Below, piece after piece: positions 547 through 36,843 of a stretch of 40,238 nucleotides of DNA. Source of the stretch: a virus; the UHGV virus genome UHGV-0383559; one strand, 5' to 3'. Within the stretch, counting starts at the first letter, position 1. Every line of letters begins with the position of its first letter. The notes beneath the pieces are model-generated. The model saw only the letters and a list, made by a program, of their open reading frames with translations. It did no database searches and had not been told where the DNA came from. The position numbers and the translations under genes were made by a program.

Positions 547-569
547 TTTAAGATTTTCAGGGGAGAGAA

Positions 570-767
570 ATGAATCATAACGAAATGAACTATGAAAGAG
601 GTTATCAGGCAGGAAGTCATATGATGATGAACAGTTTGCTTGAAGCAAGAAGGCTTCTTGAAACATCCGCAGAAGAAATCGAAAACTGCTATGGAAAAGA
701 AACCCTATTATCTAAAAGAATTAGAAACTTCTTAAATGGAGGTGATACCAATGCGGCATTATTATAA
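570..767 (+). CDS. Hypothetical protein (65 aa)
   Basis: ORF-track entry. An SD-like GGGGAGAGAA sits upstream of the ATG at 570. Confidence 0.45.
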   Translation: MNHNEMNYERGYQAGSHMMMNSLLEARRLLETSAEEIENCYGKETLLSKRIRNFLNGGDTNAALL

Positions 768-887: not shown

Positions 888-1928
888 ATGGATAATAACC
901 AGACCGCAAAGAAGCATCTGATTGATAACGTATTAGTTGCAATGGCACAGTATTTGACCGCCGAAGTGCTCCAGATTCTTGAAAGAGTGCTGGCAGAGGA
1001 GTTGGTGAAGGTGGTGATGGAAGAGATCACCACGCTGCCGGCAGAAGTCAAGGACAGCGTGGACGACCAGAACAAGTACATTATCCAGCTCTTTTTATAT
1101 AAGAAGGGACGGCTTAAGGATGGCACGAAATATAACTATCTCAATTCGGTTAAGCGCCTGATCACCCTGATCTACAAGCCGCTAAACCAGATCGATGAGA
1201 TCGACATATATCGGTTCCTTGATTGGTATGAGCACCATAACGGGAACACAGGCCAGAAGAATCAGCCTGTTACGATCAACAACGAGCGCCGGAACCTTTG
1301 CGCATTCTATAGCTGGATGCGCAAGGAGAAGTTAATCGCATACAATCCGGTCGAGTCCATCGAACCGCTGAAAGTGATCCGCAAGCCTATCGACTATTTC
1401 CGGCCCGAAGAGATCGCCAAACTGCGGGACGGCTGCAAGACATTGCGGGAGCGGGCCATCGTAGAAGTCCTGCGCAGCACTGGCGCACGTGTGGGAGAGG
1501 TCATAGAGATCACCAAAGATATGATCAACTGGGAGACCGGCGATATCCTGATCCTCAGCGAAAAGGGAGAGCGTTACCGCACGATATACCTGGACCCGGA
1601 GGCCCGCTATCATCTGCACAAGTACCTTAACAGTCGGGAGGACTATACCCCGCAGCTCTTCGTACACGCCAGAAAGCCCTATAAGTCATTGTCAACCTGC
1701 GGGGTCCGCATGATCCTCAAAGACATTGCGGCACGGGTTGACATAACATCAAGGGTCTACCCGCATAAGCTGCGGAAAACCCTGGGAATGAACTTGAAGA
1801 ATAGCGGCGTTGACATCGGAACGATTCAGGAAATTTTGGGCCATGCAGGCCCGGAGGTGACAGCAGCATACTACGCTCAGTCCACACCCCAGACATTGCG
1901 TCAGGTGCGGGAGCGGACAGCGGCATAA
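888..1928 (+). CDS. Tyrosine site-specific recombinase (phage integrase / XerD family)
   Basis: Translation carries ARVGEV (catalytic Arg box), HKLRKT (His-x-x-Arg), LGHAG and a C-terminal AAYYAQ tyrosine. The ATG at 888 is preceded by GAGGGGGTAAGA; ORF-track 819 is an upstream alternative start. Confidence 0.9.
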   Translation: MDNNQTAKKHLIDNVLVAMAQYLTAEVLQILERVLAEELVKVVMEEITTLPAEVKDSVDDQNKYIIQLFLYKKGRLKDGTKYNYLNSVKRLITLIYKPLNQIDEIDIYRFLDWYEHHNGNTGQKNQPVTINNERRNLCAFYSWMRKEKLIAYNPVESIEPLKVIRKPIDYFRPEEIAKLRDGCKTLRERAIVEVLRSTGARVGEVIEITKDMINWETGDILILSEKGERYRTIYLDPEARYHLHKYLNSREDYTPQLFVHARKPYKSLSTCGVRMILKDIAARVDITSRVYPHKLRKTLGMNLKNSGVDIGTIQEILGHAGPEVTAAYYAQSTPQTLRQVRERTAA

Positions 1929-3457: not shown

Positions 3458-3514
3458 GGAAATGGGGTGGGGGCATCGGCAAAAAAAATTAGATAAAATG
3501 GTTGACAGGAGGTG
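3458..3514 (+). promoter_or_regulatory. Conserved late-leader element, copy A: AAATGGGGTGGGGGCATCGGCAAAAAAAATTAGATAAAATGGTTGACAGGAGG
   Basis: Nearly identical to 13969..14027 (about 5 mismatches in 53 nt) and, over its 5' half, to 7759..7790. It sits between a terminator and the terS RBS and contains a GATAAAAT -10-like box. Confidence 0.6.
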
Positions 3515-7438: not shown

Positions 7439-7848
7439 CACACATATACATAACCAACGGTATGGGATACGCCCGCGTGAAGATCGAGGGCCATGCCGGA
7501 TATGGAGCCGCAAACCACCTGCCGGAGGGACATGACCTGGTATGCGCTTCCGTGTCCATTCTGGGACAGACCGCGATGCAGATCGCGATAGACATGGAGA
7601 GCGAGAAGAAGGTGAGCATTGCGCAAATGACCTGCACCCCGGGCTTGATTGACCTGCGGATATTGCCGAAAAGCGCCCATGCAAAGGAGCTGCAAGACAA
7701 GATCGAGGCCATTAGAACAGGCTTTGAAATCTTGTCAAGCACTTTTTCTGACTATGTGAAAATGGGGTGGGGGCATCGGCAAATAAAATCTGGTATGGTA
7801 TACCCAGATGGCAAATGCCTGGCTCTCGGGAAAGACCGTGAAATATGA
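7435..7848 (+). CDS. prp: Prp-family cysteine protease (ribosomal-processing cysteine protease homologue, DUF464)
   Basis: GHAGYG...VCASVS motif carrying the catalytic His/Cys dyad of Prp. Its start overlaps the portal stop. Both downstream genes carry Prp cleavage motifs. Confidence 0.8.
   Translation: MTHIYITNGMGYARVKIEGHAGYGAANHLPEGHDLVCASVSILGQTAMQIAIDMESEKKVSIAQMTCTPGLIDLRILPKSAHAKELQDKIEAIRTGFEILSSTFSDYVKMGWGHRQIKSGMVYPDGKCLALGKDREI
7759..7790 (+). promoter_or_regulatory. Conserved late-leader element, partial copy B (GAAAATGGGGTGGGGGCATCGGCAAATAAAATC)
   Basis: 31-nt near-identity to copies A and C. It lies inside the 3' end of the Prp reading frame, in a different frame from the other copies, so conservation is at the nucleotide level. 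Confidence 0.5.
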
Positions 7849-10139: not shown

Positions 10140-11477
10140 ATGATAACAGTCAGAGGACGACAGCTGGTAATTCCGAGAGACGAGAACCAGATCGGCACAA
10201 CCTACGACGATAACTCTGAGGTCAGGCGCTTTCTGATCGACCGTGTGACGTTCGGCGGAATTGATCTGTCCCACCTGAATTTCCGCCTGGACCTGGAGTA
10301 CCAAGGAGAAAAAAAGGACACAAGCCTGCTGGACGTTGAGGTACGAGAGGACAGTATCTTATTGACCTGGACAATACCGCACAGTTGCTTGACAGCTGCC
10401 GGAACCGTATGGATCGCCATTCGCGGATACGACGATAATGGCACAGTCAAGTGGGCCACGAATAAGGGCGCGGTATACGTCGAGGACACAATCGATACCC
10501 CGGGAAGCAATCCTCCTGGTCTGACAGAGCTGGAGCAGTTGGAGCGCCGGATCGAGGAAAAAACTGAAATGCTGGACGCCAATGAGGGAGAGCGCCAGCA
10601 GAATGAGGTAATACGGCAGGAAAACGAGCAGAGACGCCAGAATAACGAGGCAGAGTGGCAGAGGCAGGCAGAGACGGCAATCGGCCAGGCCAACACCACC
10701 TTGCAGGGAGCCAATGACGCCAAGGAGGCAGCACAGGGATCGGCAACAAGTGCGGCTGAATCTGCTACAGCCGCAAACGCATCCAAGGAAGCCGCAGCGA
10801 GCAGCGCACAGGAGGCAGAGGAGAGCGCGGCAGAGGCGCAGCGGATATCCCAGGGATTCGCAGGGTTCGATGGTACAGCCCTTTCAGTCCCGGCGGTCGA
10901 CGTGCAGGGACTTGTAGGGCAGGCTGGAAGCACAAGCAACGTGCAGGCTATGCTCGATTATCTGGCCGTGAAAGTAGCGCAGGAATTGGTCGGAAATGAG
11001 GCGCTGACCACAAAGCTGCTGGACTATGTGACGAAATCATCCATTGTTCAGACGGAGAGTACAGACCCCACCACAGTGCCTTCAAGCCCGTATTTTAAGC
11101 AAGTGACTGGTAAGCTAATTAGTGATTTAACTGAGTCCAAAAATGAAGTATTACTCTATTCTGGGAAGATAAAATATAACGATGAAATCAGCGTTCCAAA
11201 CTTACACAAGTATAAGTTGTTCCATCTCGGGGATAACCAAAATGAACTTTATGGGTGTGATGTGGGTGGTGTTGTTGGAAACGTATTAGAGTTTAATTTA
11301 TCAGGCCAAGTATCAGGACGAGCCGTATTTTCATCAATTAAATTTCACATAATCAAAGCCAATACCCTGAAAGTGATTTTTAATATACAAGTTAATGTTA
11401 CCGCTGACAATGCTATAGAGTATGTTAGCTTGGAAAGAGAGAGTCAAATAACGTTATGGGGAGTGCCTTTAATCTAA
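10140..11477 (+). CDS. Tail-fibre-like protein with coiled-coil Ala/Gln-rich shaft and AT-rich C-terminal domain
   Basis: RBS GGAGGTGGGATAG. The central region is EAxxAA/coiled coil. The last ~120 codons (about 11130-11477) are markedly AT-rich relative to the rest of the gene, suggesting a mosaic receptor-binding end. Confidence 0.6.
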   Translation: MITVRGRQLVIPRDENQIGTTYDDNSEVRRFLIDRVTFGGIDLSHLNFRLDLEYQGEKKDTSLLDVEVREDSILLTWTIPHSCLTAAGTVWIAIRGYDDNGTVKWATNKGAVYVEDTIDTPGSNPPGLTELEQLERRIEEKTEMLDANEGERQQNEVIRQENEQRRQNNEAEWQRQAETAIGQANTTLQGANDAKEAAQGSATSAAESATAANASKEAAASSAQEAEESAAEAQRISQGFAGFDGTALSVPAVDVQGLVGQAGSTSNVQAMLDYLAVKVAQELVGNEALTTKLLDYVTKSSIVQTESTDPTTVPSSPYFKQVTGKLISDLTESKNEVLLYSGKIKYNDEISVPNLHKYKLFHLGDNQNELYGCDVGGVVGNVLEFNLSGQVSGRAVFSSIKFHIIKANTLKVIFNIQVNVTADNAIEYVSLERESQITLWGVPLI

Positions 11478-11481
11478 TTGA

Positions 11482-11955
11482 TCATTTTGCAATCGCGATC
11501 CAGAACACAGACAACTCAGAGGCAGAAGTGCCGTTATAGACTACACCAGTTACCTTTTGTGTGTCACGGCTTAATGGCGCTGCACTGCGCAAGTCTGGGC
11601 GTGATGTTACTGCACTCATAACCACCTCAGGATATTTCGAAAACGGTTTTGGGAAATTCACCGTAAATTCAGTCGTGCCGTTTGCAGCAGCGTTGACTGT
11701 TGCAATTCCAGATTGTATATCAGCACCTGTAACATAACTGGCCCAATCAGTCCACACCGATCCATTATATCGCCTGGTGTGTGTACGATCATAGACCGTT
11801 ATGCGCTGGATCACGTACCCAGTTGTTGCGATAACCTCCAAATTACCGGCTACGCTACCGGGTGAGTTGAGAATTGATGGCTCCCCATTGAAACGATATA
11901 TACCAGGACTTCTATAATTATTGAAATCACCAGTAACGGCTCCACGATCAACCAC
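11482..11955 (-). CDS. Start-less tail-fibre C-terminal cassette (knob-like receptor-binding domain), convergent with the fibre gene
   Basis: Translation begins VVDRGAVTGDFNNYRSPGIY, resembling the opening of tail-fibre knob domains. The reading frame has no ATG; only GTG at 11955. No SD precedes it. The frame is open for 9 further codons upstream through an S-D-L codon triplet identical to one in the + fibre gene. Confidence 0.5.
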   Translation of the reverse strand: MVDRGAVTGDFNNYRSPGIYRFNGEPSILNSPGSVAGNLEVIATTGYVIQRITVYDRTHTRRYNGSVWTDWASYVTGADIQSGIATVNAAANGTTEFTVNFPKPFSKYPEVVMSAVTSRPDLRSAAPLSRDTQKVTGVVYNGTSASELSVFWIAIAK

Positions 11956-12025
11956 TAAATCACTATATTGAGTAGTAACTCATCCACCAACAACGCCCCG
12001 GATATCCGGGAGAAAGGAAAAATCA

Positions 12026-13968: not shown

Positions 13969-14027
13969 CAAAATGGGGTGGGGGCATCGACCAAAAAAAT
14001 CCGATAAAATGGTTGACAGGAGGGACG
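13969..14027 (+). promoter_or_regulatory. Conserved late-leader element, copy C: AAATGGGGTGGGGGCATCGACCAAAAAAATCCGATAAAATGGTTGACAGGAGG
   Basis: Same element as 3458..3514. Again it sits directly after a terminator and directly before an RBS/ATG (14031). Confidence 0.6.
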
Positions 14028-19272: not shown

Positions 19273-22200
19273 ATGGCATTATCTGAAAACGAAAAAAGGC
19301 GGTTTGAGAATCGATATAGAGGCATAGTCGATCAGAAAAGTGATCCGTTTGACGCATTGCCGGATAGTGTGAAGGCAAGATTGTATAAGCGTAAAAGCAC
19401 ACTTGAAAAGAATGCAGGGGATGTACCGGCCAGTAAGCGAAAACACATCTATTCAGAATTTGGCACAGGGGTGGAGACGGAATTTCGCAACAACCTTCCT
19501 GGACTTGCGCAGGAATACGCACGCAAAAGGGCAGAGAGAGAGCGCACTCTGCCCCTTATCGGTGCGGGGGTATATGAAGCAATGACCGGAAACAATATGC
19601 CCAGCCTGGCGTTGGAATATGCCCAGGAACGGGCCGCACAGGGATATAAGCGGCCATCATTGAAGGATACAGATTTCAGGAACAAGGTTCTTGAAAATGC
19701 CTTTACAGGATTGCAGTTGTCGCAGATGGCAATGAAAGGAAGCCCATCCGCAAAGGACACTGCGGCAGAGTACATGGCGACAAAAGACAGCCAAAGTAAA
19801 AGAAAACCTTACACCCTGAGGAATACTCCATATGATCAAGACTTGGCGGTATATACTCCACCGGAGGTTGAAGAAAAGCGGAGGCGGGAAAAGTTCGAAA
19901 ACGTCGGATTCTATGATCAAAACGATGAGTTTGTGAGATACGATGGACTCGAACGACAGTCAGATTTCCCGGAGATGGTAAAGTCGGGAAAAGAGAAGGA
20001 TAATGTATTTAATGCTAATTATGGATTAATCGATTATCTCAATAAAGATAAAAGAGATGTAATGAAAGCAGCGAATACAAACTTCACTTATATGACGGAC
20101 ACTGAAAAAGACCTGTACTATTATCTCAATGCAAAATATGGGGCGAAAGCAGCCTCGAACTATGTTGAATCGATTAACAAGGAATTAAACAGAAGGAGCG
20201 CAGAATATGCAACCGCTCAGGCGCAGAAATTGGGTAAGGAGCATCCGATATTAGGAACGGTTGCGGATACCGCATTTGCAACGGTGGGAAGCGGTGCTTA
20301 TCCGTGGATTGTTGCAAAAACAGTAGCGGGTAAAAAGGAAATTGACCCAAATGATCCAGCATTTGGGGCGGATATACTAAATTCCGGTATTCGCTCCGGA
20401 ATGAGCGAAAATGAAACACTCAAAACCTTAATTCCCAATGAGGGGGCGCGCAATTTTGCCATAGGAACAGGTCTTTCTATGGCGGAAAATATTGGTAGAT
20501 TACCCATGGGGTATCTGGGCTTGGGAGTTGCGGCTGGAGGAGCAGGACTTTCGGCCACGAGAGAAGCAACGGAGCGCGGAGGCACGGCGAATCAAGCAAT
20601 CGCCTACGGAGCCGCAAATGCAGCAGCGGAAGCATTTTTTGAAAAATTTTCGCTCGAAAATTTAAAATCGCTGAAAGCGGCACCCGGTAAAGGAGTAAGG
20701 ATTTTTCTTAGAAATATCGGTAAACAGGCTTTAACGGAAGGTTCAGAAGAGGTATTCACGGAAATTGCGAATACCGTGTCTGATCAAGTAATTATGCGTG
20801 AATTATCAAATTACAATCTGGAGCTGGAATATTACAAGAGCCAGGGAATGAGCGAGGAGGAGGCGAAACAGAAGGCTTTTGGCACATTTTTAAGTAATGT
20901 AGCCTTGGCTGGAGCTGGCGGCGCAGTATCGGGTGGACTCATGGGCGGAGGGGGACAACTCTTAGGAAACTATGAACTTAGTCAATATGGAAAGAGCATA
21001 GACCATGATTACCGTGATGTGGCCGCTGGTATCGACATTCGTCCTGAGAGCTACGCAACGGCAGAGGATCAGCAGCAAGCGGTGAATCTCCAAAACTTGG
21101 CCCAAGAATACGCTGCCCGTCAGGCCAATAAAGAAACAATATCTAATCGTGAAAAAGCAGAATTTGAGTTGCAGCTTGAGAGCTTCAATTACGGAGCACA
21201 GGCCCGCAAAAAGGCGCTGGATAGCATCCTCGCAGAGGACCAGGAACCACCTGCGCAGCAGAATCATGAGCCGGGAGGAGAACAGCCGGACGCCTCCGTG
21301 CAGAGACCCACAACGAGCCAGAACAGCCCGGAAGCGGCCCAGATGAGGGAAACTGCACCAACAGCTCAGAAGAGTGATAGCGTGGCGTATAATGCGCCGG
21401 AATCTAACGTAAGCGCGTTGGAGGAGTGGGCAAAACCATTCGGAACTGAAGGACAAGACACCTTTAAGGCACTGTACGATGGTGAGACTGACATGGGAGC
21501 GTATTACCGTGCATTTGGCCGCGCCTATAACATAGGCCGGTATAACATGCAGCCTACACCGCAGCACCGGGCAGAGGCGGCGGTGATTCTTGGAGTAGAT
21601 GGATTTTCTGAGGCATTCAAGGCTGGAGCACATGACCGCCCCGAAATTGGATATGACCGAAAGACCGGATCATTGAACGGTATGGTGATGGGATCGCCGA
21701 AAGAAGGTGGCCTTGGAACTGTTGCCCCGAGCGCGACGGAGGCCCAAAAGAAGGCCGCAACACATATCGGAAAACTCACCGGCCTGCAAATAGACCTTGT
21801 GGATGGACTGAACAATCAAAATGCTGCGGCCTCTTACTCCAAAGGCAAGATTACCCTGTCAGTGAACAGCAGCGATTTCATGGGCTCGGCCGCCCATGAG
21901 TTGACACATTACATTAAGGACTATGCGCCGGATGCCTATCAGGTATATTCGGACCACGCAGTACGAGCTATAACGGAGGCGCAGGGAGTTGATCTTGAAA
22001 CGATGATCAATGACTACATAAGCACGTATGAGCAGCAGACCGGCCAGCAGTTAAGCCGGGAAGAAGCCGTTGATGAAATTGTAGCCGACGCCACGCAAAA
22101 GTTCTTAAATGATCCTGATTTCATCAGCCGGGCGATTAAGGAAGATTCGACCATCGGCCAGAGAATTATAGATTTTCTGACCGACGTAATCGACGCGATC

Positions 22201-25200
22201 AAGGAGCTGGTCAAAGTAGGAAGCACGCGCCGGGCAGCAAAAGCATTGGAAGAGAACCTACAATATTTTGAGCGCTGCCGTCAGGAGTGGATGATCGGCC
22301 TGGAGGAAGCCGGTGAACGCTATAAAGCGGGCTGGGAGACTGATACAGACACTAAATATCAGTTAAACCAGTTTGGATTAGAAGAATATACAGAACGTGA
22401 AAAACAGAATCTTGCGAATGAAATAAATATTATCTGCAATTCGAAAGCTGATATTAAGCGATTCGTGGATAATATCAACCCGGCCAAATTGCAGCGTTTG
22501 TTTTTGGGTAATATTGGACCAGAATTAGGCCAAATAATCAAGAATAAAACAGGCATAGATATAACGGGATACAGCCTGGTTATACGAAGTGACAATGTAA
22601 CAAAAATATTCAAAGATCATGGAAGCGATAAGGAGTATAAAAGAGGGCAGATTCCAGTGACGGTCGATGATATTGCAGCAATTCCACAAATTATATCTGA
22701 GGCAGACAAGATTGAACGAACGACTGATACCGATATGGGGAAACCGGCGATACGGTTTGAAAAGAATTTCCGGGGGAAAGATGTTGTCATTGAGTATGTT
22801 TCGGATAAGCGCAGAATGCTTTACACCCAAACCATGTGGATAAATAAAAAGAATCCTCCCACTACGGAAGATGTGCAAGCCCCTTCCCTTACGCCCAAAG
22901 CGGTTAGTGGTACGGATTCTAATAACAGTATAGCACGGGAAAAGAGCGAAGGCAAGGTTCGATTTCAGTTAAAAGAGCCGGTAGAAGAGACGAAAGACCT
23001 TATCGCGGTTCACAATCTGTCGGAAGAAAAACTGCTGGGGGATATCCGGCTTGGTGGCCTACCAATGCCTTCCATTGCCATAACCAAGGCAGATATCGGC
23101 CATAGCAATTTCGGCGACATTTCGCTGATATTCCGCAAGGATACCATTGACCCGAAAAATCGAAAGAACAAGGTATATGGTGCCGACGCCTGGACACCCA
23201 CGTTCCCACGAATTGAATACGAGGCCGATCCCAAGGTATCGCGGGATATCGAGAACAGGGTAACACAACTGAGCGGTGCCTTGCCGGACGAATACGCCAA
23301 CCGCGCAAGGTCGTTCGTGGCAGCGCTGGGAAACAACCTGAATAATTATGGCGGTCAGGCTGGAATCGTTGAACAAGCATTCGGAAATTATGGCATGAAG
23401 GCGGTATATCTGGCAAGCAAGGGGGAACCGGTAGAGGTCAAGACGCTCAAAACAGAGGAAGCCATACCGCAAAACAAGCAGACTATATACAAAGCAATTC
23501 TGGATGAGCTTGGCGAAGATATTGAGCAGGCTCATGGAAAAGGAAGCGAAGTATATGGAAAATATGGTGATCGAGCAAGGGAAGCTTACCGCAGGGGGTT
23601 GATGAGCATTGGTGCCGATGAGGACATGGCTTGGGATATGGCGGGCAGAATGAACAAATTCCAGATCGTCCAAGAAATGCGAAATGCACTAAAATACCGC
23701 GAAACCGGCGATACCATCATCACAGAAGCCCCAGACTACGCGGGGACTGAAAAGAGCATAGATGATCGAATCGACCAGGGAGAATACCGAAAGTGGTTGA
23801 ATGATCTCTTCCAGGGCGTCGAAAAGAGACAGGGAATATACAACGGGAAAGAATACATCACTCCATCGGGAAATCGGAGATCGTTTTCGCAGCTCCACCT
23901 CGACGTGACGGTCGAAAATATTGTAAAAGCGATGCTCGCCCAGACCGATGATGTCAGGAATGTTGCCGGCTGGAATGGCATTAAGTCTATCAGGGCTATT
24001 GTGACCGATGATTTTAAGAGCATCGATCAAATCAAAAAAAAGTCGAACAGACTCCGTGATGTTAATACAGAGACTTACAACAAGCAACTGGAGGAGATGG
24101 AGAACCGATTATATGCTGTAATCGGCCAGATTGTTGACGCCAAAGGAGGATCGGGGAATCATCTGATTGATATTGACATGGTAGGAAAAAGTATTCTGGA
24201 GGCGTGCAAAAATCCTACAGCCCAGAATATCCTCAAAACGCTGCGCAATTACCACTGGCCCATAACAAATGCCCAGGCCCAGGAAATCGCGAACATTGCC
24301 AACGAGGTCTACAACATGCCGGTCAACATGTTCGAGGCAAAGCCCCAGCGCGTGGTGAATTTCGATGAGATCGCCGCCGCAGTAATCCCATTAACGGCCA
24401 GTGAGGACCTGAAATTGGAACTGGAGGCAGTAGGGATTAACGCAGTTCAGTACGATCCAAACCTGCCGGATGCCCGCCGGGAAGCCGTGAACACACTGAA
24501 AGATGTGCGCTTCCAGCTTGAAGATGTGGATAATGTCGATGCCCGGGCGCTCCAGCAGGAAAACAAAACCCTGCGGGAAGCCAACGAACTGCTGAGGAGG
24601 GAGCTTGAATTGACCGGAAAGACAGAGCCGCGCCTGAGTGACGTTAAGAAGGTAGCCACGGAGTTGTTGAGGCAGCATAACAGCGATTACCGGCACGAAA
24701 CCCTGACGCGAAACTTGATCGGGCTGTATGAATATCTGCGCAGCGCCGACCAAGTGGACATGGCACAGGCTGCGGAACTGGCGGCGGGGATCGCCAAAGG
24801 CGTCCTTAAGAAGGCAAAATCCACGTCAGAATATGCGCAGCAGTATGAGGACTTACGGCAGCAGATCAGGGATACCAAGATTCAGATTACGGACCAGGAT
24901 AAGGCCGATCTGATGAGGATGGGAGGCTACAACAACTTCCGCAAGCAGTATTTTGGCAAGATGAAGTTGGGAAACGACGGTATATCGATTGACGCCTTCT
25001 ACCAGGAATTGGCGGACCAGCATCCGGAACTGTTTGATGCCAACGTCACGCATCCGGCGGATCAGCTCATGGCCGTGGCGACTGCAATCGACACCATGAC
25101 CGCCCAGGTAGCCAACCCATACGGCGCGGACATGGACGAGATGTCTTACATCGTAGGCCAGGAAATCTTGCAGGCATATTCCAGGGTACGGGAAGTTCCG

Positions 25201-28200
25201 GCCACATTTGCGGATAAAAAAGCCGCAGAGATTCAGCAGGTGAGACGGGATTATAATAAGAAGATGTCCGAATACAAAAATGACCTGAAAAAGAAGTATG
25301 ATCAAGCATTGAAACAGGTGTGGCGAGAGAACAGCGCAAAAATTGATGAGCTGGCGAAGGAATACCGTGAGCTTAAGGACGCTCGTATGGTAGACCGCGC
25401 AGAATACCGTACCAAAATGGATAGGCTGCGCAATGACAAAAACTTGGCGCTGGCCGCTATGCAGCAGCGACATCGTGAACAGCTCCAGCAGCGCAGGGAC
25501 AGCCTGCGGGCCAGGGAAGCCAAAAAGCGTATTATCAAGGACACGCGAGAAATGCACCGATGGCTGACAGAACCCAATGACAAGAAGCATGTACCGGAAA
25601 GCCTGAGAACCCCGGTGGCGCAGTTCCTTCTCAGTATAGATTTTAGCAGCGATTGGACTGACCAGAATGGAGGCCCGGCGCAGCGAACGATTATCTGGAA
25701 GGACATGAGTAAGCAACTAAATAGTATCGTTGAAGCGGGCGGAATTGTAGAGGAGCAAGGAGAGCAGCGGATTCTCAACGTCGATCCATCACTTCCGGGA
25801 AAAATCAACGAACTTGCGGACAAAGTAAAACTTCTCCCACGGCTGGAAGAACTGGACGCAAACCAACTGGAGCGGTTGCAGGAAAGCGTTACGGCCATGA
25901 AAAAACTGATCCAAGACGCGAATCAGATGATCAGTAACGCCAATTACAGGAACGTTGAAACCGCAGCAACAAGCTTCCTGTCAGATGTCAGCAAGAAAAA
26001 AGACGCGGTTGAATTTTCGGAAAATTCTTACGTGGGAAAAGGGAAAAACCTGTTTCAAAACGACCTGCTGGACTCTAACAGCGCCTTCTACCGTATGGGG
26101 CCGGTGATGAGATCAATCTATCAGGAGATCAGAGATGCAGAGGATAGGCACACCGCCAACCTGGTAACTATGGAGCGATATTTCCACGATACCTGCCAGG
26201 AGCTTGGGATCACAAAAGAGGAGCTGCGGGAATGGACCGGCCCGAAAGCCAAACAAATGACCTTCATAGTAGACGGGAAAGCTGTAAAAATGACAGCAGC
26301 CCAGCTCATGACCCTCTATGAATCGGACAAGCGTGGACAGGCAAAAAAGCACATATACAGTAAAGGCGGAGGCATTATTCCATCAGAACTGATCCGGCAG
26401 AAAGAAAACGATAACGGAAAAGCAAAAACCTCCGTCCTGGGGCGCATGAATCCAAAGCCAAAACCAGTTCATGTAACAGAGCAGGACGTGCAGAGGATCA
26501 CCAGTGTTCTTACACCGAAACAGATCGCCTTTGCGGACAAGCTGCAATATTTCCTTGGGCACGTCACATCTGAGTGGGGAAACGAAACCTCCATGAAGAT
26601 GTACGGCTACAAAAAGTTCACGGCGTCCAATTACTTTCCCATAGAGGTATACCAAAATGCCATCCACAAAGACACGGTTGACGTGGGAATGAATGCGCTG
26701 GCAAGCATCAAAAACATCGGCGCAGCCAAAGCAACCAGCGAGAAAGCCGGAAACGCCCTGGTCCTGAATGACATCATGGATGTGTACATTAAACACTCGA
26801 ACCAGATGAGCATCTATAACGCCATGTTGGCCCCACTCTCAGATTTTCAGAAAGTCTATAATTACAAATCCGGGGAGGCTGGAAATGTAAAAGAAGAAAT
26901 TGAACGAGCGTGGGGGAAAGGAGGAGCCAAATACCTTGACACGCTGATCAAAGACATCAATGGAAGGGTAGACAACCCTGACCCTGGAATGTATGGCAAA
27001 CTGATGCAGAACATGAAGGCGGCGGCGGTCGCGGGTAACCTGCGCGTTGCAATCCAGCAGCCTACGGCAATGGTCAGAGCTGCGGCGGAACTGTCCCTGA
27101 TGGACCTTGGGAAAGGTGCCATCACAAAATCCCCCACACTAAGCAGGAAAGAGCAGTGGGACGTCATGTGTAAGTACGCCCCGATCACTCAGTGGAAGGA
27201 CTGGGGATTCTTCAAGATGGACACGTCAAAAACCATGCGGGATGTGTTAATGGGGACGGAATCCCCCAAGCAAGCCTTCGTAGACAAATTCATGTGGGCG
27301 GCGGCCAAAGGTGACGAGCTGGCCTGGAGACACATGTGGAACGCCTGCGAATACGAGGTTATGAGAAGTAACCCAGAATTAGAGCCTGGGAGCGATGCCT
27401 ATTACCGAAAAGTCGGGAGCCGGTTCTCAACGGTGATCGACAAAACCCAGGTGGTAGATTCTGTGCTGCATCGTACGCAGATCATGCGCAACTCGGATGG
27501 ACTTGTTAAGATGTCCGTCGCATTCATGAACGAGCCACTTAAAAGTTATAACATGCTCTACCGGGCCTTTGTGGACGCGCGGGAGAGTGGCAACTATAAG
27601 GCCGTAAGAACCGCGGCAGTAATATATGCCGCCAATGCGATTACGACGGCCCTGGCGGCGTCCCTGGTTGATATGTGGCGCGACGATGATAAGGATAAGA
27701 AGTTGTGGGAGAAATATCTGAATGCCCTGATGGGGAACGCCATTGACGGGCTGAACCCGCTCAACATGATCCCACTCGTGAAAGATATCTGGTCCATATT
27801 CCAGGGGTATTCCACGAAACGCACAGATTTGAGTGGTATTGAGGATATCCAAAAAGTAACCGGAAAGTGGCTGCAATATTTCCAGGGAGACAGCAAGTAT
27901 ACAATCCCGTACCTCATCATGGAAACCATGGACTCGACAAGTATTATAACGGGGGTGCCGGTTCGAAACCTGAACCGGGATATCATAAAACCGCTGATAA
28001 GATCGCTGTATAGTGTTTGGGACGGTGACGAATACCGTGCACTAAAATTGAAATACGATATAGGAAGCGAGAAGAACCTGGGATACTATGCCGATATGAT
28101 GGTTGACGCCATGATCGAGGGAGATCAGACGCGCATGGAGCAGATCAAGGCGGATATGCTGGAGGCCGGCTTGGAGAATGAAGATATTTCGAGTAGATAC

Positions 28201-28908
28201 GATTCAGAATACAGGAAATATCTGAAAGATAATGTCCCTGAAATAGAGGAGGCGGCACAGGCCAGAATCGACGGGAAGCCGGAGGAATACAAGCGCCTGT
28301 ATGATGAAATTGTTGTGGCAGGTTACGATCCAACATATGTTAAAAAGGCAATCGATACCGCTATGAACAAGCTGAAATCGGATATTGAAGAGGCGGCGCA
28401 GGCCAGAATCGACGGGAAGGAGAAAAAATACAAACGACTGTATGGTGATCTTATTGAAGATGGTTACGATCCCACATACGTTAAAAAGGCAATCGACACC
28501 GCCACAAATAAGCCGAGATCAGGCACAGAAGAGAGCGAGGAGAAAATAGAAGAGACGAAGGAAGAGGAACCCAAGGCAGAAAGCATATATTCAACTTATG
28601 ACCTGCTGGCAGGGGTCGAACAGGTGTCGAACACGACGCAGAGCCTAAAGGCATTCAGCGTGGTGGCAGAGGATATGTATCAGGCAAAACTCAGCAACGG
28701 GAAAAAGAAGAGCGAAGCCATCGGAGAGATCAAGTCCCTGATCACCAAAGCGTATAAGAAGCAGTGGATTGAGGCATACCAGCGAAAAGACAAGGCCACG
28801 TACCAGGCGATCCAAAACAAGCTGAAATATCTCAAGATCGGAGGCGCAACAATATACGGAAGTAGCGATTGGGAAAGCTGGCTAAAAGAGGCCAAGAAAA
28901 ATAAGTAG
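19273..28908 (+). CDS. Giant 3211-aa virion protein with zincin HExxH metallopeptidase motif; polyvalent-protein-like
   Basis: One uninterrupted ORF. AHELTHY (HExxH) lies at nt ~21893-21913. There is a Gly-rich N-terminal region, long alpha-helical/coiled segments, an AT-rich internal module (~22330-22990) and a C-terminal tandem repeat. Position is at the end of the late region. Confidence 0.85.
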   Translation: MALSENEKRRFENRYRGIVDQKSDPFDALPDSVKARLYKRKSTLEKNAGDVPASKRKHIYSEFGTGVETEFRNNLPGLAQEYARKRAERERTLPLIGAGVYEAMTGNNMPSLALEYAQERAAQGYKRPSLKDTDFRNKVLENAFTGLQLSQMAMKGSPSAKDTAAEYMATKDSQSKRKPYTLRNTPYDQDLAVYTPPEVEEKRRREKFENVGFYDQNDEFVRYDGLERQSDFPEMVKSGKEKDNVFNANYGLIDYLNKDKRDVMKAANTNFTYMTDTEKDLYYYLNAKYGAKAASNYVESINKELNRRSAEYATAQAQKLGKEHPILGTVADTAFATVGSGAYPWIVAKTVAGKKEIDPNDPAFGADILNSGIRSGMSENETLKTLIPNEGARNFAIGTGLSMAENIGRLPMGYLGLGVAAGGAGLSATREATERGGTANQAIAYGAANAAAEAFFEKFSLENLKSLKAAPGKGVRIFLRNIGKQALTEGSEEVFTEIANTVSDQVIMRELSNYNLELEYYKSQGMSEEEAKQKAFGTFLSNVALAGAGGAVSGGLMGGGGQLLGNYELSQYGKSIDHDYRDVAAGIDIRPESYATAEDQQQAVNLQNLAQEYAARQANKETISNREKAEFELQLESFNYGAQARKKALDSILAEDQEPPAQQNHEPGGEQPDASVQRPTTSQNSPEAAQMRETAPTAQKSDSVAYNAPESNVSALEEWAKPFGTEGQDTFKALYDGETDMGAYYRAFGRAYNIGRYNMQPTPQHRAEAAVILGVDGFSEAFKAGAHDRPEIGYDRKTGSLNGMVMGSPKEGGLGTVAPSATEAQKKAATHIGKLTGLQIDLVDGLNNQNAAASYSKGKITLSVNSSDFMGSAAHELTHYIKDYAPDAYQVYSDHAVRAITEAQGVDLETMINDYISTYEQQTGQQLSREEAVDEIVADATQKFLNDPDFISRAIKEDSTIGQRIIDFLTDVIDAIKELVKVGSTRRAAKALEENLQYFERCRQEWMIGLEEAGERYKAGWETDTDTKYQLNQFGLEEYTEREKQNLANEINIICNSKADIKRFVDNINPAKLQRLFLGNIGPELGQIIKNKTGIDITGYSLVIRSDNVTKIFKDHGSDKEYKRGQIPVTVDDIAAIPQIISEADKIERTTDTDMGKPAIRFEKNFRGKDVVIEYVSDKRRMLYTQTMWINKKNPPTTEDVQAPSLTPKAVSGTDSNNSIAREKSEGKVRFQLKEPVEETKDLIAVHNLSEEKLLGDIRLGGLPMPSIAITKADIGHSNFGDISLIFRKDTIDPKNRKNKVYGADAWTPTFPRIEYEADPKVSRDIENRVTQLSGALPDEYANRARSFVAALGNNLNNYGGQAGIVEQAFGNYGMKAVYLASKGEPVEVKTLKTEEAIPQNKQTIYKAILDELGEDIEQAHGKGSEVYGKYGDRAREAYRRGLMSIGADEDMAWDMAGRMNKFQIVQEMRNALKYRETGDTIITEAPDYAGTEKSIDDRIDQGEYRKWLNDLFQGVEKRQGIYNGKEYITPSGNRRSFSQLHLDVTVENIVKAMLAQTDDVRNVAGWNGIKSIRAIVTDDFKSIDQIKKKSNRLRDVNTETYNKQLEEMENRLYAVIGQIVDAKGGSGNHLIDIDMVGKSILEACKNPTAQNILKTLRNYHWPITNAQAQEIANIANEVYNMPVNMFEAKPQRVVNFDEIAAAVIPLTASEDLKLELEAVGINAVQYDPNLPDARREAVNTLKDVRFQLEDVDNVDARALQQENKTLREANELLRRELELTGKTEPRLSDVKKVATELLRQHNSDYRHETLTRNLIGLYEYLRSADQVDMAQAAELAAGIAKGVLKKAKSTSEYAQQYEDLRQQIRDTKIQITDQDKADLMRMGGYNNFRKQYFGKMKLGNDGISIDAFYQELADQHPELFDANVTHPADQLMAVATAIDTMTAQVANPYGADMDEMSYIVGQEILQAYSRVREVPATFADKKAAEIQQVRRDYNKKMSEYKNDLKKKYDQALKQVWRENSAKIDELAKEYRELKDARMVDRAEYRTKMDRLRNDKNLALAAMQQRHREQLQQRRDSLRAREAKKRIIKDTREMHRWLTEPNDKKHVPESLRTPVAQFLLSIDFSSDWTDQNGGPAQRTIIWKDMSKQLNSIVEAGGIVEEQGEQRILNVDPSLPGKINELADKVKLLPRLEELDANQLERLQESVTAMKKLIQDANQMISNANYRNVETAATSFLSDVSKKKDAVEFSENSYVGKGKNLFQNDLLDSNSAFYRMGPVMRSIYQEIRDAEDRHTANLVTMERYFHDTCQELGITKEELREWTGPKAKQMTFIVDGKAVKMTAAQLMTLYESDKRGQAKKHIYSKGGGIIPSELIRQKENDNGKAKTSVLGRMNPKPKPVHVTEQDVQRITSVLTPKQIAFADKLQYFLGHVTSEWGNETSMKMYGYKKFTASNYFPIEVYQNAIHKDTVDVGMNALASIKNIGAAKATSEKAGNALVLNDIMDVYIKHSNQMSIYNAMLAPLSDFQKVYNYKSGEAGNVKEEIERAWGKGGAKYLDTLIKDINGRVDNPDPGMYGKLMQNMKAAAVAGNLRVAIQQPTAMVRAAAELSLMDLGKGAITKSPTLSRKEQWDVMCKYAPITQWKDWGFFKMDTSKTMRDVLMGTESPKQAFVDKFMWAAAKGDELAWRHMWNACEYEVMRSNPELEPGSDAYYRKVGSRFSTVIDKTQVVDSVLHRTQIMRNSDGLVKMSVAFMNEPLKSYNMLYRAFVDARESGNYKAVRTAAVIYAANAITTALAASLVDMWRDDDKDKKLWEKYLNALMGNAIDGLNPLNMIPLVKDIWSIFQGYSTKRTDLSGIEDIQKVTGKWLQYFQGDSKYTIPYLIMETMDSTSIITGVPVRNLNRDIIKPLIRSLYSVWDGDEYRALKLKYDIGSEKNLGYYADMMVDAMIEGDQTRMEQIKADMLEAGLENEDISSRYDSEYRKYLKDNVPEIEEAAQARIDGKPEEYKRLYDEIVVAGYDPTYVKKAIDTAMNKLKSDIEEAAQARIDGKEKKYKRLYGDLIEDGYDPTYVKKAIDTATNKPRSGTEESEEKIEETKEEEPKAESIYSTYDLLAGVEQVSNTTQSLKAFSVVAEDMYQAKLSNGKKKSEAIGEIKSLITKAYKKQWIEAYQRKDKATYQAIQNKLKYLKIGGATIYGSSDWESWLKEAKKNK
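28243..28524 (+). repeat. Tandem internal duplication (~141 nt / 47 aa, 2 copies) near the C-terminus of the giant protein
   Basis: IEEAAQARIDGKPEEYKRLYDEIVVAGYDPTYVKKAIDTAMNK is followed by IEEAAQARIDGKEKKYKRLYGDLIEDGYDPTYVKKAIDTATNK. Confidence 0.85.
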
Positions 28909-28945: not shown

Positions 28946-28965
28946 TTATATTGAAAAAATAATTA

Positions 28966-29011
28966 CCATAAGCCTATATGCGCATATACATTTGCGCATA
29001 TAGGCTTATGG
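28966..29011. promoter_or_regulatory. Perfect 19-bp inverted repeat with 8-nt spacer (CCATAAGCCTATATGCGCA-tatacatt-TGCGCATATAGGCTTATGG); candidate attP core
   Basis: Seen directly in the sequence. It lies in the short intergenic gap immediately 3' of the large serine integrase gene and after the last late gene. Confidence 0.5.
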
Positions 29012-30598
29012 TTATGGACGCAAAGGAATCTTCGGGTATACCGTCAGTTCGAAGTTTATATTATGCAAGTCTCCCTTCTTATTACGTTCGTTCTTTACAT
29101 ACGAAATTCGATCAATGACATTTTTCAGTAGCGCGTTTTTGGTTTGTGCATCTTCTATACTGTCATACACATCAATAATGTGGCGCACAGCAGGCAAGAA
29201 TTTAGTTCGTGCTTGTTCCTGCAATAATTCTCGTTCGTACTGTTCTTGAAGCTCCCGGAGGCTTTCGGTCGCCTCTGTGATCTGATCTGACAGACTTCTG
29301 TTTCGTTCCAAAAACACTTCCGATGTATATATCCCCTGCTCCAAAAGATCATATGTAGACAATAATTGCTTTTTGAGTGTTTCGATCCTGGCCTCGGTAT
29401 TTTTGATGGCAGACACGCGAAGGGAAAGCGCTGATACAAGAGGAGATTCCTTTTGACGGAATGGAAGCTCGTAGCGATCAACCCAATCCTGCAATGCGAC
29501 GAGGAGTTGTTCCTCAATCAAAAAGATGGGGGAAGATATATTATCACAATAACGATTAGGACACTTCATAACGGGATAGTTTACCTTCGTGTTGCTGGCG
29601 GCTCGTGTCATAAGCGAACCACATTTCCCGCAGTAGACAAGGCCAGTAAAAGGATTCTGCAACACTTGGTTAGAAGATACCGATATATTCCTCTTTTCAC
29701 GGATAATAGACTGAGCCAACTCAAAGGTATCGTTATCAATGATTGGTTCGTGTAATGCTTTGATTTTCATACAGTTATCATAGTCCTTTGGCCTCTTTTC
29801 AACCAATTCACCATTGACGATCTTCTTCTCAACTTTCCTCCACCTCCAGCGCACCTTGCCAGTGTAGGTAGGATTGGTTAGGATATCTTTTATGGTTGAT
29901 CTGGACCACATGTTACTATTGCGTGGCTGAATATGTAAGCTGTCCAATCTCTTGCTGATCAGATACATTCCCAGGCGCTTAAACTCCCCATTTTCTTGCA
30001 ACTCGCCTCTGGTATACAGATCGTAGATTAAGCGGACAACATCGGCCTCGCTTGGTATGATCTTTAGTGTGTAGCCCTTATCGTTTTTGATCCGCACGCG
30101 CTCATATCCATAGGGAGCTGCACTTGCGATATACTTTCCTTCCTCGACGGAGGCAATGCGTCCACGCTGTATACGACGATTTATGGTTTTGTACTCGCGC
30201 CTGGACATAAAAAGCCCAAACTCGAAATACTCTTCGTCAAATTCATTCGATGGATCGTATATTTTAACCGGGGTAATAATTTTCGTATTGCTGAACTTAA
30301 ATGCCTCGGCGACGGTTCCCTGATCCTTGGTGTCGCCTCGGGCAAGTCGTTCAACTTCCATGACAAGGACGCCTTCCCATAGCCCTTCTTCAACTTCGCG
30401 AATAACCTGTTGCATCTTGGGCCTGGCAGCGATTGTCTCACCGGATACAATTTCCTTGTATATTCCAGTGACATTCAGGTTCATTTTTTTAGCAAGTTCT
30501 ATTAATGTTTTTTCGTGTCGGGCAAGAGTTTCTCCTTCGCCGCGTGCTTCGGCTTCCATATCGGCGCGGCTCTTGCGCAGATAAATCAAGTATGGCAT
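29012..30598 (-). CDS. int: Large serine recombinase (phage integrase)
   Basis: An N-terminal resolvase-type catalytic domain (YLRKSR...), a central recombinase domain, a zinc-ribbon (CGKCGSLM...KCPNRYC) and a C-terminal coiled coil, in 528 aa. Confidence 0.95.
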   Translation of the reverse strand: MPYLIYLRKSRADMEAEARGEGETLARHEKTLIELAKKMNLNVTGIYKEIVSGETIAARPKMQQVIREVEEGLWEGVLVMEVERLARGDTKDQGTVAEAFKFSNTKIITPVKIYDPSNEFDEEYFEFGLFMSRREYKTINRRIQRGRIASVEEGKYIASAAPYGYERVRIKNDKGYTLKIIPSEADVVRLIYDLYTRGELQENGEFKRLGMYLISKRLDSLHIQPRNSNMWSRSTIKDILTNPTYTGKVRWRWRKVEKKIVNGELVEKRPKDYDNCMKIKALHEPIIDNDTFELAQSIIREKRNISVSSNQVLQNPFTGLVYCGKCGSLMTRAASNTKVNYPVMKCPNRYCDNISSPIFLIEEQLLVALQDWVDRYELPFRQKESPLVSALSLRVSAIKNTEARIETLKKQLLSTYDLLEQGIYTSEVFLERNRSLSDQITEATESLRELQEQYERELLQEQARTKFLPAVRHIIDVYDSIEDAQTKNALLKNVIDRISYVKNERNKKGDLHNINFELTVYPKIPLRP

Positions 30599-32188: not shown

Positions 32189-32644
32189 TTATCCTGCCGT
32201 TTCAGTGCGAACATCCACCGGCGGGAACTGGCGCTCTAACTCTTCGGATGTATTTGGTACACCGTCAAAAATAGATTTCCTGGTTGGTATGCCGAAATTA
32301 TCAAGGAAGCGATCCAGGAATTGCGTTCTAAGCTGTGGATCGATTTCAAAATAAGCCTTTAAAATTCCAAGCTCCCGATCAGACATTCCGTGATCCTTTG
32401 CGAACTTATCCAAGCTGAACACATTGGGAGCGCTATACATTTTGCCGGTTCCGCCTCTTAACCATTCTTCGTTGACGGAAAATTGACGGCATATACTTTT
32501 GACAGTGAGGTCAGATACATTGCGGCCAGACTGTTCCATGTAGCTTACACCGGATTGGGTGATACCCAAAATATCAGCAAATTCTTTTTGATTTAGTTTC
32601 GCTTCTGCTCTAATCTGTTTTATTCTGCTGTTTATTGTATTCAT
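32189..32644 (-). CDS. XRE-family HTH transcriptional repressor (CI-like)
   Basis: N-terminal helix-turn-helix QKEFADILGITQSGVSYMEQ. It is transcribed divergently from the early operon, in the classical repressor position. Confidence 0.85.
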   Translation of the reverse strand: MNTINSRIKQIRAEAKLNQKEFADILGITQSGVSYMEQSGRNVSDLTVKSICRQFSVNEEWLRGGTGKMYSAPNVFSLDKFAKDHGMSDRELGILKAYFEIDPQLRTQFLDRFLDNFGIPTRKSIFDGVPNTSEELERQFPPVDVRTETAG

Positions 32645-36084: not shown

Positions 36085-36843
36085 ATGCGAATTATCAACA
36101 TAATCAACCTGAAAGGCGGCGTCGGCAAGACCACCACCGCCTTAGAAATGGGATACATATTACATCATAAGTACGGATACTCCGTGCTGCTGGTGGATAA
36201 CGATAAGCAGGGCAATCTCAGCAGGGGAATGGACCTGTACACAGACAGCGGCATATGCCCGACGGCCCGCCTACTGTCCGGGGAGCCGGTGCAAGACCTG
36301 ATCCACCGCGACGGCATTGACACCATAGCCGCTAATATGTCTCTGCTGACCGCCACCTACCGCCTGACCTCCGGGGCCGCAGCCAATGCAACGGGCCGGT
36401 ATCGGGGCCTGAGGAAAGCGCGGAACCAGGACGGGAAACCATACGACTACGTGATCATAGACAATCCCCCAGACCTGGGGATCAACGTGATCAACGCCTT
36501 GATGGTCACCGACGACGTGATCATCCCTACCAAGATAGACCAGTGGGCGCTCGAAGGGCTGGATATCATCGGGGACCAGATCGTGGAGATCAAGCAGGTT
36601 AACCCGAGAATCCGTCTTGCGGAGGCATTGGTGACCATGTACCGCAATACACCGGCCTGCGCTGCCGGATTAGACTGGCTCCATAAGCACAATTACGACG
36701 CTTTCGACACCGCGATCAGGTATAGCGAGAAGGCCGCAGAGTGCACCTTCTTCGGCAAGCCCCTCCAGGACTATAGCCCCAGGAGCGCAGCCGCCGTATC
36801 TTACCGCCGGTTCGTGGCGGAATATCTGAGGAGGACAAGCTGA
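36085..36843 (+). CDS. parA: ParA/Soj-family partition ATPase
   Basis: Deviant Walker A KGGVGKTT near the N-terminus, in a 252-aa protein. Confidence 0.9.
   Translation: MRIINIINLKGGVGKTTTALEMGYILHHKYGYSVLLVDNDKQGNLSRGMDLYTDSGICPTARLLSGEPVQDLIHRDGIDTIAANMSLLTATYRLTSGAAANATGRYRGLRKARNQDGKPYDYVIIDNPPDLGINVINALMVTDDVIIPTKIDQWALEGLDIIGDQIVEIKQVNPRIRLAEALVTMYRNTPACAAGLDWLHKHNYDAFDTAIRYSEKAAECTFFGKPLQDYSPRSAAAVSYRRFVAEYLRRTS

Follow-up and report, generated by a model that had tools for sequence, protein, structure and literature searches.

The virus genome UHGV-0383559, a stretch of 40,238 nucleotides (nt) referred to here as the window, carries at positions 11120-11965 an 846-bp segment that is most probably a single-segment site-specific inversion module changing the receptor-binding end of a fibre. 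The segment holds the 3' end of the fibre gene and, facing it tail-to-tail on the opposite strand, a reading frame that would provide an alternative fibre tip. This reading is carried by the anatomy of the locus, by the occurrence of both orientations in related genomes, by breakpoints that coincide exactly with a short core sequence, by the match between the cores at the two ends of each segment, and by clean inversions in sister lineages. Flipping is probably still going on in this phage, judging from the comparison of sequences, and the swap of tips would be expected to change its host range.

In the present configuration, the fibre gene (10140..11477, plus strand) encodes 445 amino acids (aa) according to the list of open reading frames (ORFs). 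The N-terminal part of the protein is composed of a BppU-like region and a coiled-coil shaft, and its present tip is here called cassette A. Residues 1-265 match phrog_25888, the matches to other tail-fibre PHROG families being weak, and one relative of the fibre is labelled 'BppU domain protein' in nr; a sequence search of the fibre against the Protein Data Bank returned only noise. The constant part of the fibre, aa 1-330 (10140..11129, plus strand), ends in ...KLISDL and is directly followed by cassette A (11130..11477, plus strand), the 115 aa expressed now (TESKNEVLLYSG...GVPLI). The first-pass annotation of this DNA, which had proposed an invertible fibre C-terminus, described the fused C-terminus as more AT-rich than the shaft, and the GC contents bear this out: 52-63% in the shaft, 35% in 11100-11477 and likewise 35% in cassette A, with 45-49% in the orphan cassette.

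The left crossover site, TAGTGATTTA (11120..11129, plus strand), lies inside the fibre gene and has the invariant core TAGTGATTT at 11120-11128. It reads I-S-D-L in the fibre frame, the last three residues corresponding to codons S328, D329 and L330. The right crossover site is an inverted copy (11956..11965, minus strand, with the core at 11957-11965), which is also read as S-D-L in frame, and the two copies of TAGTGATTTA are found exactly where they had been reported. Next to the right site begins cassette B (11482..11955, minus strand), a silent, two-domain sequence of 157 aa (VVDRGAVTGDFNNY...WIAIAK). The description first given of this minus-strand ORF holds in every respect: it has no ATG, its sole possible start is the GTG at 11955, it is not preceded by a purine-rich Shine-Dalgarno (SD) sequence at proper spacing, and its frame stays open upstream through Y-S-D-L, reading (stop)-VTTQYSDL/VVDRGAV back to a TGA at 11980-11982 (here and below, a slash marks the junction).

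The opposite orientation of the segment is found in related contigs (designated L; their proteins and other related ones are designated P). In L006, positions 11117-11965 of the window are reversed at 99.65% identity over 850 nt, between flanks that are collinear with the window at 83.3% and 85.3% only. The fibre of this contig, P0057, has 330 + 157 = 487 aa and reads ...KLTSDL/VVDRGAVTGDFNNY... at the junction, meaning that the in-frame fusion of shaft and cassette B, initially just a prediction, exists as a protein of a related phage. In L086, the 846-nt segment is reversed at 99.88% identity within an unrelated fibre gene of 279 aa, and in L011 it is reversed at 99.5% identity beside a different, non-coding left flank. 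Cassette A is the silent partner in all three contigs.

The limits of the segment are just as sharp where it has been replaced. L004 matches the window at 100.000% over the 7623 nt that end at 11129, and the match returns at 11955; L003 and L005 have the same breakpoints, and the alignments of related contigs stop at 11128/11129 to resume at 11953-11956. Unrelated pairs of convergent cassettes take the place of the segment in L003, L004, L005 and L014, with those of the first three bounded by the same inverted core. Identical outer flanks are joined to different cassettes and vice versa, and the join falls exactly at the core. At this junction, where alternative fibre C-termini had been anticipated in related phages, a shaft (aa 1-330) conserved at 99-100% identity carries at least eight different ones, and the break always comes directly after S-D-(L/F/I). 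Exchange of segments is needed to account for identical shafts with unrelated cassette pairs, and for the presence of a more than 99.5%-identical segment in diverged or unrelated flanks.

Clean inversions are observed between closely similar genomes. L070 and L073 share 99.6% identity over 11.7 kb, rising to 100% downstream, and a 509-nt segment bounded by 16-nt repeats (AAATAGCAATTTAGCA) is inverted between them at 100% identity; their layout is like that of the window, with a single segment and a window-type recombinase about 9 kb upstream. Similarly, L020 and L021 share 99.99% identity over 16.8 kb, the exception being a 599-nt segment inverted at 100% identity. More elaborate arrangements are seen in L001 and L016-L022, in which 3 to 7 segments lie on both sides of an Xer-like tyrosine recombinase. 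Such arrays comprise 6 to 13 sites around a recombinase gene, and in L016, L017 and L018 segments have been both relocated and inverted, at 100% identity between contigs. Misassembly is not a credible source of the breakpoints at the core because the repeats fall well short of the k-mer length of assemblies and the junctions recur in independent Logan, ENA and JGI assemblies.

The repeat in the window is by itself weak evidence, and it gains its significance from the comparison with related contigs. Inverted repeats of 10-13 nt are numerous within the 4-kb region, making this one unremarkable by length, and the 9-mer TAGTGATTT occurs in 2 copies in 40 kb against 0.27 expected, two copies being reached in 2 of 100 shuffles. 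The first-pass annotation had cautioned that the repeat could be due to chance or be a relic of ancient recombination; the comparison disposes of the first concern and answers the second only partly.

The 25 sites examined first share the sequence T-AGT-GAT-TT without exception, down to the initial T, a non-coding position at orphan sites. Ser, Asp and Leu/Phe could be encoded by many codons and yet the sites are invariant, which indicates conservation at the nucleotide level. Across 35 distinct segments the inverted repeats span 9-18 nt and share the core TAG[T/C][G/A]ATTT, which occurs in relatives as TAGTGATTT, TAGCAATTT or TAGTAATTT, the last two encoding S-N-L. The left and right cores carry the matching variant (GTG, GCA or GTA) in every one of the 35 segments. 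For example, L036, L037 and L038 have near-identical flanks and the cores GTG, GTA and GTG, respectively, with matching ends in each. Tyrosine recombinases need identical central bases at both crossover sites while tolerating which bases these are, and matching ends combined with a variable core are the pattern of a tyrosine recombinase crossover region. The site of the family is short and asymmetric, roughly AAnTAGTGATTTAg, and its core is carried by at least four different fibre scaffolds.

Cassette B is a fibre tip and not a gene. It is found in fused form in P0057, P0001, P0003, P0008 and P0024, the last four being complete fibres with a cassette B-type C-terminus and the junction ...N-S-D-L/VVDRGAV..., and one cassette of L001 shares 96% protein identity with it. 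Its reading frame is intact and 99-100% identical to expressed copies. In other homologues the gene calls do not agree on a start: the GTG or ATG chosen lies either at VVDRGAV or a short way upstream of S-D-L. The idea of a spare tip, which would have been in trouble had the homologues been expressed as independent genes, is left unharmed by such starts, which fall inconsistently at the repeat, and by the homologues fused to a shaft at N-S-D-L.

The knob-like receptor-binding domain at first attributed to cassette B agrees with its AlphaFold model (mean pLDDT 74, about 90 for residues 83-160), whose fold matches are R-pyocin fibre tips, the Helix pomatia H-type lectin and tailspike C-terminal domains. 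The distal domain is accordingly predicted to be H-type-lectin-like, and an H_lectin match is present in a sister cassette, that of P0052. The Gp53-like_C match to cassette B (E 7.6e-4) is below the Pfam cut-off, and a sequence search of the cassette against the Protein Data Bank gave no match. Cassette B is also modular in itself: a second conserved junction, with the motif WTDWASY[LV]T[NG]AD, lies within the tip at about 11710-11730, and in homologues (P0007, P0009, P0010, P0011 and P0024) at least five unrelated distal domains follow the first one (VVDRGAV...LTNAD).

In the proposed mechanism, conservative site-specific recombination between the two inverted cores would flip the 846 bp. Cassette B lies on the other strand without promoter or start, with the inverted core at its 5' end, and a crossover inside the core would fuse aa 1-330 of the shaft in frame to its 157 aa, the AT-rich, 115-aa cassette A becoming the silent copy. 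The flipped state would be expected to contain the junction sequence ...AAGCTAATTAGTGATTTAGTGGTTGATCG... plus its partner, its two junctions reading ...AAGCTAATTAGTGATTTA/GTGGTTGATCG... and ...CTCAATATAGTGATTTA/ACTGAGTCC.... Whole segments would also be able to pass from one phage to another by way of these sites. Promoter and terminator scans around the module returned nothing above chance.

The most likely catalyst would be the XerC/D-like tyrosine recombinase encoded at 888..1928 (plus strand; Pfam Phage_integrase, E 4e-29), whose ORF is open from a GTG at 819 and which is regarded here as the candidate invertase. The absence from the window of a small invertase of the Gin/Hin type, stated at the outset, is confirmed by Pfam scans of the sizeable window ORFs, which detected no small serine invertase, the only recombinases being this enzyme and a large serine recombinase of 528 aa (29012-30598, minus strand; Pfam Resolvase, Recombinase and Zn_ribbon_recom). 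The latter stands beside the repressor in the lysogeny module, an integrase position, 17 kb from the segment, and this leaves the tyrosine recombinase, which lies inside the genome and ahead of the late genes, with no role assigned to it. The position of the tyrosine recombinase is conserved in segment-bearing relatives, which have the same gene order (early genes, recombinase, Rep, terminase), and relatives with a window-type recombinase and a visible fibre 3' end nearly always present the core site. The best NCBIfam matches of both the window and the array-embedded tyrosine recombinases are of the Xer type. The similarity between the window enzyme and that embedded in the L001 array (31% identity, both Xer-like) was considered as a means to decide which enzyme acts and was dropped, such a value being ordinary for Xer-like proteins.

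Several observations weigh against an actively inverting module driven by this enzyme. The flipped state is absent from all contigs of the window's own lineage: the window, L007-L010 and L083, together with the P0037 fibre (9 contigs), all express cassette A. A 487-aa protein with a 100%-identical shaft was not found in the protein collection, and a search for the exact 26-nt pattern of the shaft end in the JGI metagenomes and in IMG/VR yielded only a single contig from each, of the L014 type in both cases. The orientation relative to L006, L086 and L011 could reflect segment transfer instead of flipping in place, and the 10-nt repeat of the window is at the short end of the family range. As for the enzyme, it is encoded 9 kb from the segment and its 31% identity to the array enzyme is ordinary; L066 has a 94%-identical recombinase with a different fibre of 312 aa and no site in the DNA covered; and the presence of ParA, ParB and Rep genes means that the recombinase could instead resolve plasmid multimers.

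These last points feed the alternative that survives best, namely that the inversion is real and that the invertase is supplied by the host or by a co-resident array phage, the 888-1928 gene acting otherwise, for example in Cre-like multimer resolution for a plasmid-prophage equipped with ParA, ParB and Rep. We consider this possible, if on the doubtful side. Besides the distance of 9 kb, the ParA, ParB-like and Rep genes of the phage and the fibre of L066, it is favoured by homologues with 60% identity in other phage types in which no site was seen within 10 kb, by array phages that have a recombinase of their own and share identical cassettes and cores, and by an inversion without adjacent recombinase described in bifidophages (PMC6109161). 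What speaks for the enzyme of the phage itself is the nearly constant presence of the core site alongside window-type recombinases wherever the fibre 3' end is visible, and its Xer-like nature, shared with the Rin and array-embedded enzymes. Moreover, the inversion that distinguishes L070 from L073 occurs in contigs whose sole recombinase within 12 kb is of the window type.

A second alternative is that the module is a relic or serves exchange only, so that it records past recombination, flipping has been lost here and the orphan cassette is a spare over evolutionary time. The single orientation in the window's own lineage and the lack of the flipped fusion with a 100%-identical shaft in the protein collection are what it would lead one to expect; so is the need for replacement, and not inversion alone, to place many cassette pairs behind an identical shaft, and the window repeat is only 10 nt long. 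Nevertheless, the module has two intact, identical sites, cassette B has kept an open frame that is 99-100% identical to expressed copies, and sister lineages of the same layout exhibit clean recent inversions. In addition, assemblies give the majority orientation only, meaning that a minority state would go unseen, and several contigs are interrupted at the module or within it, which is what mixed populations would produce. L013 and L084 stop 45-52 nt beyond the left core and L083 stops at window position 11414; in L085 both termini, which are reverse complementary to each other, fall within the cassette A tail. Such ends fit populations with mixed orientations or partners, even if they are only suggestive. 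Taken together, these data make a relic improbable.

Far less probable still is that homologous or microhomology-mediated mosaicism at a conserved N-S-D-L linker generated the junctions without a dedicated recombinase. The junction is indeed a conserved peptide motif in many fibres, and mosaicism at conserved linkers is common in tail fibres. RecA-type recombination is, however, inefficient at 9-18 nt of identity, which is all that is shared here; invariance at the nucleotide level extends from the codons to the T before them, a non-coding position in orphan sites; left and right cores agree in 35 of 35 segments; and the arrays group 6 to 13 sites around a recombinase gene. Finally, the view of 11482-11955 as an ordinary independent gene started at GTG, with the repeat a coincidence, can practically be dismissed: gene callers in public assemblies often do call the ORF from a GTG or ATG (P0007, P0009-P0011), but it has no SD sequence, the called starts are inconsistent and all at the core or just upstream, the identical sequence serves as the C-terminus of complete fibres, and the segment boundaries match the core in many genomes.

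Within the preferred reading, that of a site-specific inversion module, the point where the two cassettes meet deserves separate mention. This tail-to-tail junction is the hexamer TGATCA (11479..11484), in which TCA forms the stop codon of cassette B. L009 matches the window outside the orphan cassette (11485-11954; 1541-1950 in L009), with the break at TGATCA. In L085 (positions 1-55) a third partner is linked to cassette A at that hexamer, the match ending at 11486, which means that cassette A is seen with three different partners. TGATCA may be a second recombination point at which cassettes are re-paired. All segments of the TAGTGATTT type contain the hexamer, including those in which it does not serve as an in-frame stop. 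The idea of a universal second site was nevertheless dropped, because TAGCAATTT-type segments have TAATCA, TGATTA or a short gap at the cassette junction and the pattern consists largely of back-to-back stop codons. On a wider scale, it is tentatively suggested that the 9-bp core is a currency shared across unrelated Lachnospiraceae phage lineages: a tyrosine recombinase would flip segments and exchange two-cassette segments between co-resident genomes, and the second breakpoint at TGATCA (roughly AAATGATCATTT) would re-pair cassettes, giving a two-level combinatorial host-range system.

A perfect 14-bp palindrome, CCCGGATATCCGGG, flanks the module at 11997..12010. It had been noticed in the first pass and placed at 11999-12012; the palindrome is real and its true place is two bases further to the left. 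It lies outside the right site, not in the inverted DNA, with 16 nt separating it from the ribosome-binding site of the gene that follows. The palindrome is conserved in both L003 and L004, and L005 has instead a small hairpin, CCGGC-GAG-GCCGG, at the same place.

The window corresponds to a temperate phage encoding a terminase, a P22-type portal, a Prp protease and a capsid protein. Enterocloster lavalensis KCTC 15153 holds a 97.7%-identical stretch, which identifies the host as a Lachnospiraceae gut bacterium. The exact phage is contained in the sequencing runs ERR8083598, ERR14845668, SRR5903331 and ERR10101874. The tyrosine recombinase gene (888-1928) is followed by Rep (2023-2811) and the terminase; after the fibre gene come an XkdX-like gene, the holin and the endolysin, and further downstream a 521-aa virion protein and two Peptidase_S74 fibre proteins. 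The lysogeny module is on the minus strand and comprises the large serine recombinase (29012-30598) and a helix-turn-helix (HTH) repressor (32189-32644), and the early genes include ParA (36085-36843) and a ParB-like gene (37164-38168). The set formed by Rep, ParA, the ParB-like protein, and the Xer-like and large serine recombinases suggests that the phage might persist as a plasmid too. The window ends do not overlap, hence there is no direct sign of circularity, and the window has no tRNA genes.

Other features of the window were also recorded. Upstream of the tyrosine recombinase, the homology of L013, L014 and L083 starts at window positions 554-570, after a DUF6275 ORF (262-546), so that a mosaic breakpoint common to independent relatives lies at about 554. 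A motif of about 50 nt, AAATGGGGTGGGGGCATCGGCAAAAAAAATCnGATAAAATGGTTGACAGGAGG, occurs at 3460-3512, before the small-terminase gene, and at 13971-14023, ahead of the gene that precedes that of the 521-aa virion protein; its first 30 nt are also found at 7760-7789, before the scaffold gene. This motif is a candidate late promoter or regulatory element. Positions 19273-28908 form a single ORF of 3211 aa with PBECR3 and PBECR5 nuclease domains, near whose 3' end there is a 122-nt tandem repeat, 82% identical (28240-28502). A bidirectional terminator or a part of attP may lie at 28962-29015.

An inversion module of this kind would offer temperate Enterocloster/Lachnospiraceae phages a widespread route to change receptor specificity without mutation, in a group of abundant gut bacteria of which few phages have been studied. 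It would account for the identical fibre shafts with many different tips that are found in metagenomes and for contigs interrupted at this locus, and it implies that small GTG-started ORFs downstream of fibre genes should be viewed as silent spare tips and not as genes. In practical terms, the 9-bp core could be used as a simple marker for receptor-binding modules and cassette pools, and the site-plus-cassette format as a ready scaffold for fibre-tip swapping in engineering.

As regards systems already described, blastn and tblastn searches of the locus and fibre against 50,697 GenBank phage records gave no match, and full-text searches on phage shufflons and tyrosine recombinases brought up no paper on Lachnospiraceae or Enterocloster phages. 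A diversity-generating retroelement was considered and rejected, as the scanned ORFs have no reverse transcriptase domain and whole cassettes are swapped, as opposed to adenine-specific substitution.

The classical fibre switches are those of Mu G/Gin, P1 C/Cin, p15B Min and e14 Pin, in which inversion exchanges the C-terminal part of a tail fibre and with it the host range. They have an adjacent small serine invertase and a Fis-dependent enhancer; the gix/cix sites measure about 26-34 bp, and the segments contain chaperone genes. The module described here resembles them in having two convergent alternative fibre 3' ends and one constant 5' part joined by in-frame fusion. It differs in that there is no small serine invertase, the repeat has 10 nt (9-18 nt in the family) and the segment contains no chaperone genes. 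The lack of a small invertase and the short sites place the module outside the serine-invertase group.

The R64/IncI1 shufflon, in which the Rci tyrosine recombinase acts on 19-bp sfx sites of pilV carrying convergent C-terminal cassettes, resembles the module in several respects. In both cases two convergent cassettes lie between inverted sites inside a coding sequence, the outcome is a changed adhesin tip, and relatives present multi-segment arrays next to a tyrosine recombinase. The differences are that a phage fibre is involved here as opposed to a conjugative pilus adhesin, that the repeat is unlike sfx in sequence and length, and that the recombinases score best against Xer models (NCBIfam).

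The Rin shufflon of Bifidobacterium prophages, present also in prophages of Eggerthella lenta, relies on an Xer-like tyrosine recombinase and on start-less cassettes, each placed after an 11-bp asymmetric repeat, and was studied by comparing near-identical genomes (PMC6109161, PMC8778435). The likeness covers the location on a phage genome, the constant N-terminal part of a receptor-binding or fibre gene combined with start-less variable C-terminal cassettes, the short asymmetric repeat (11 bp in Rin, a 9-bp core here), the Xer-like class of the tyrosine recombinase, here a candidate, and the evidence from genome comparison. The sites are distinct, rix being TTCCCTAACCC as opposed to TAG[T/C][G/A]ATTT, and rix has no match in the window at up to 1 mismatch. 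Here, moreover, the host belongs to the Lachnospiraceae, the portal is of the P22 type and the fibre is BppU-like. The window has one segment with two convergent cassettes and a recombinase 9 kb away, whereas that of Rin flanks its array; in the relatives L001 and L016-L022 the recombinase is inside the array, and the two enzymes are likened by their Xer-like class.

A second inversion has been described in bifidophages (689b-1 / Bb423phi2), based on an 8-bp sequence and without adjacent recombinase (PMC6109161). It shares with the window a single segment (of about 500 bp there) that contains a small gene and the 3' end of its neighbour and is inverted between relatives, a very short repeat and the lack of a flanking recombinase, but the genes concerned have no identified function, in contrast to the fibre tips and the recombinase-bearing arrays of the present family. 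The tail-fibre shufflon of a BV01-like Phocaeicola phage, reported in a preprint with read-level data showing all configurations (PMC13596623), also has 10-bp directional motifs between non-homologous cassettes at the distal end of a tail fibre, and its recombinase flanks the array. It differs in motif (TGGGAGAACT, a site not shared by the window), in host phylum and in phage, and it has three cassettes in 1.7 kb. In summary, the kind of switch encoded in the window is already known, working like Rin, the R64 shufflon and the Mu G, P1 and p15B systems, while the family to which it belongs had not been described before.

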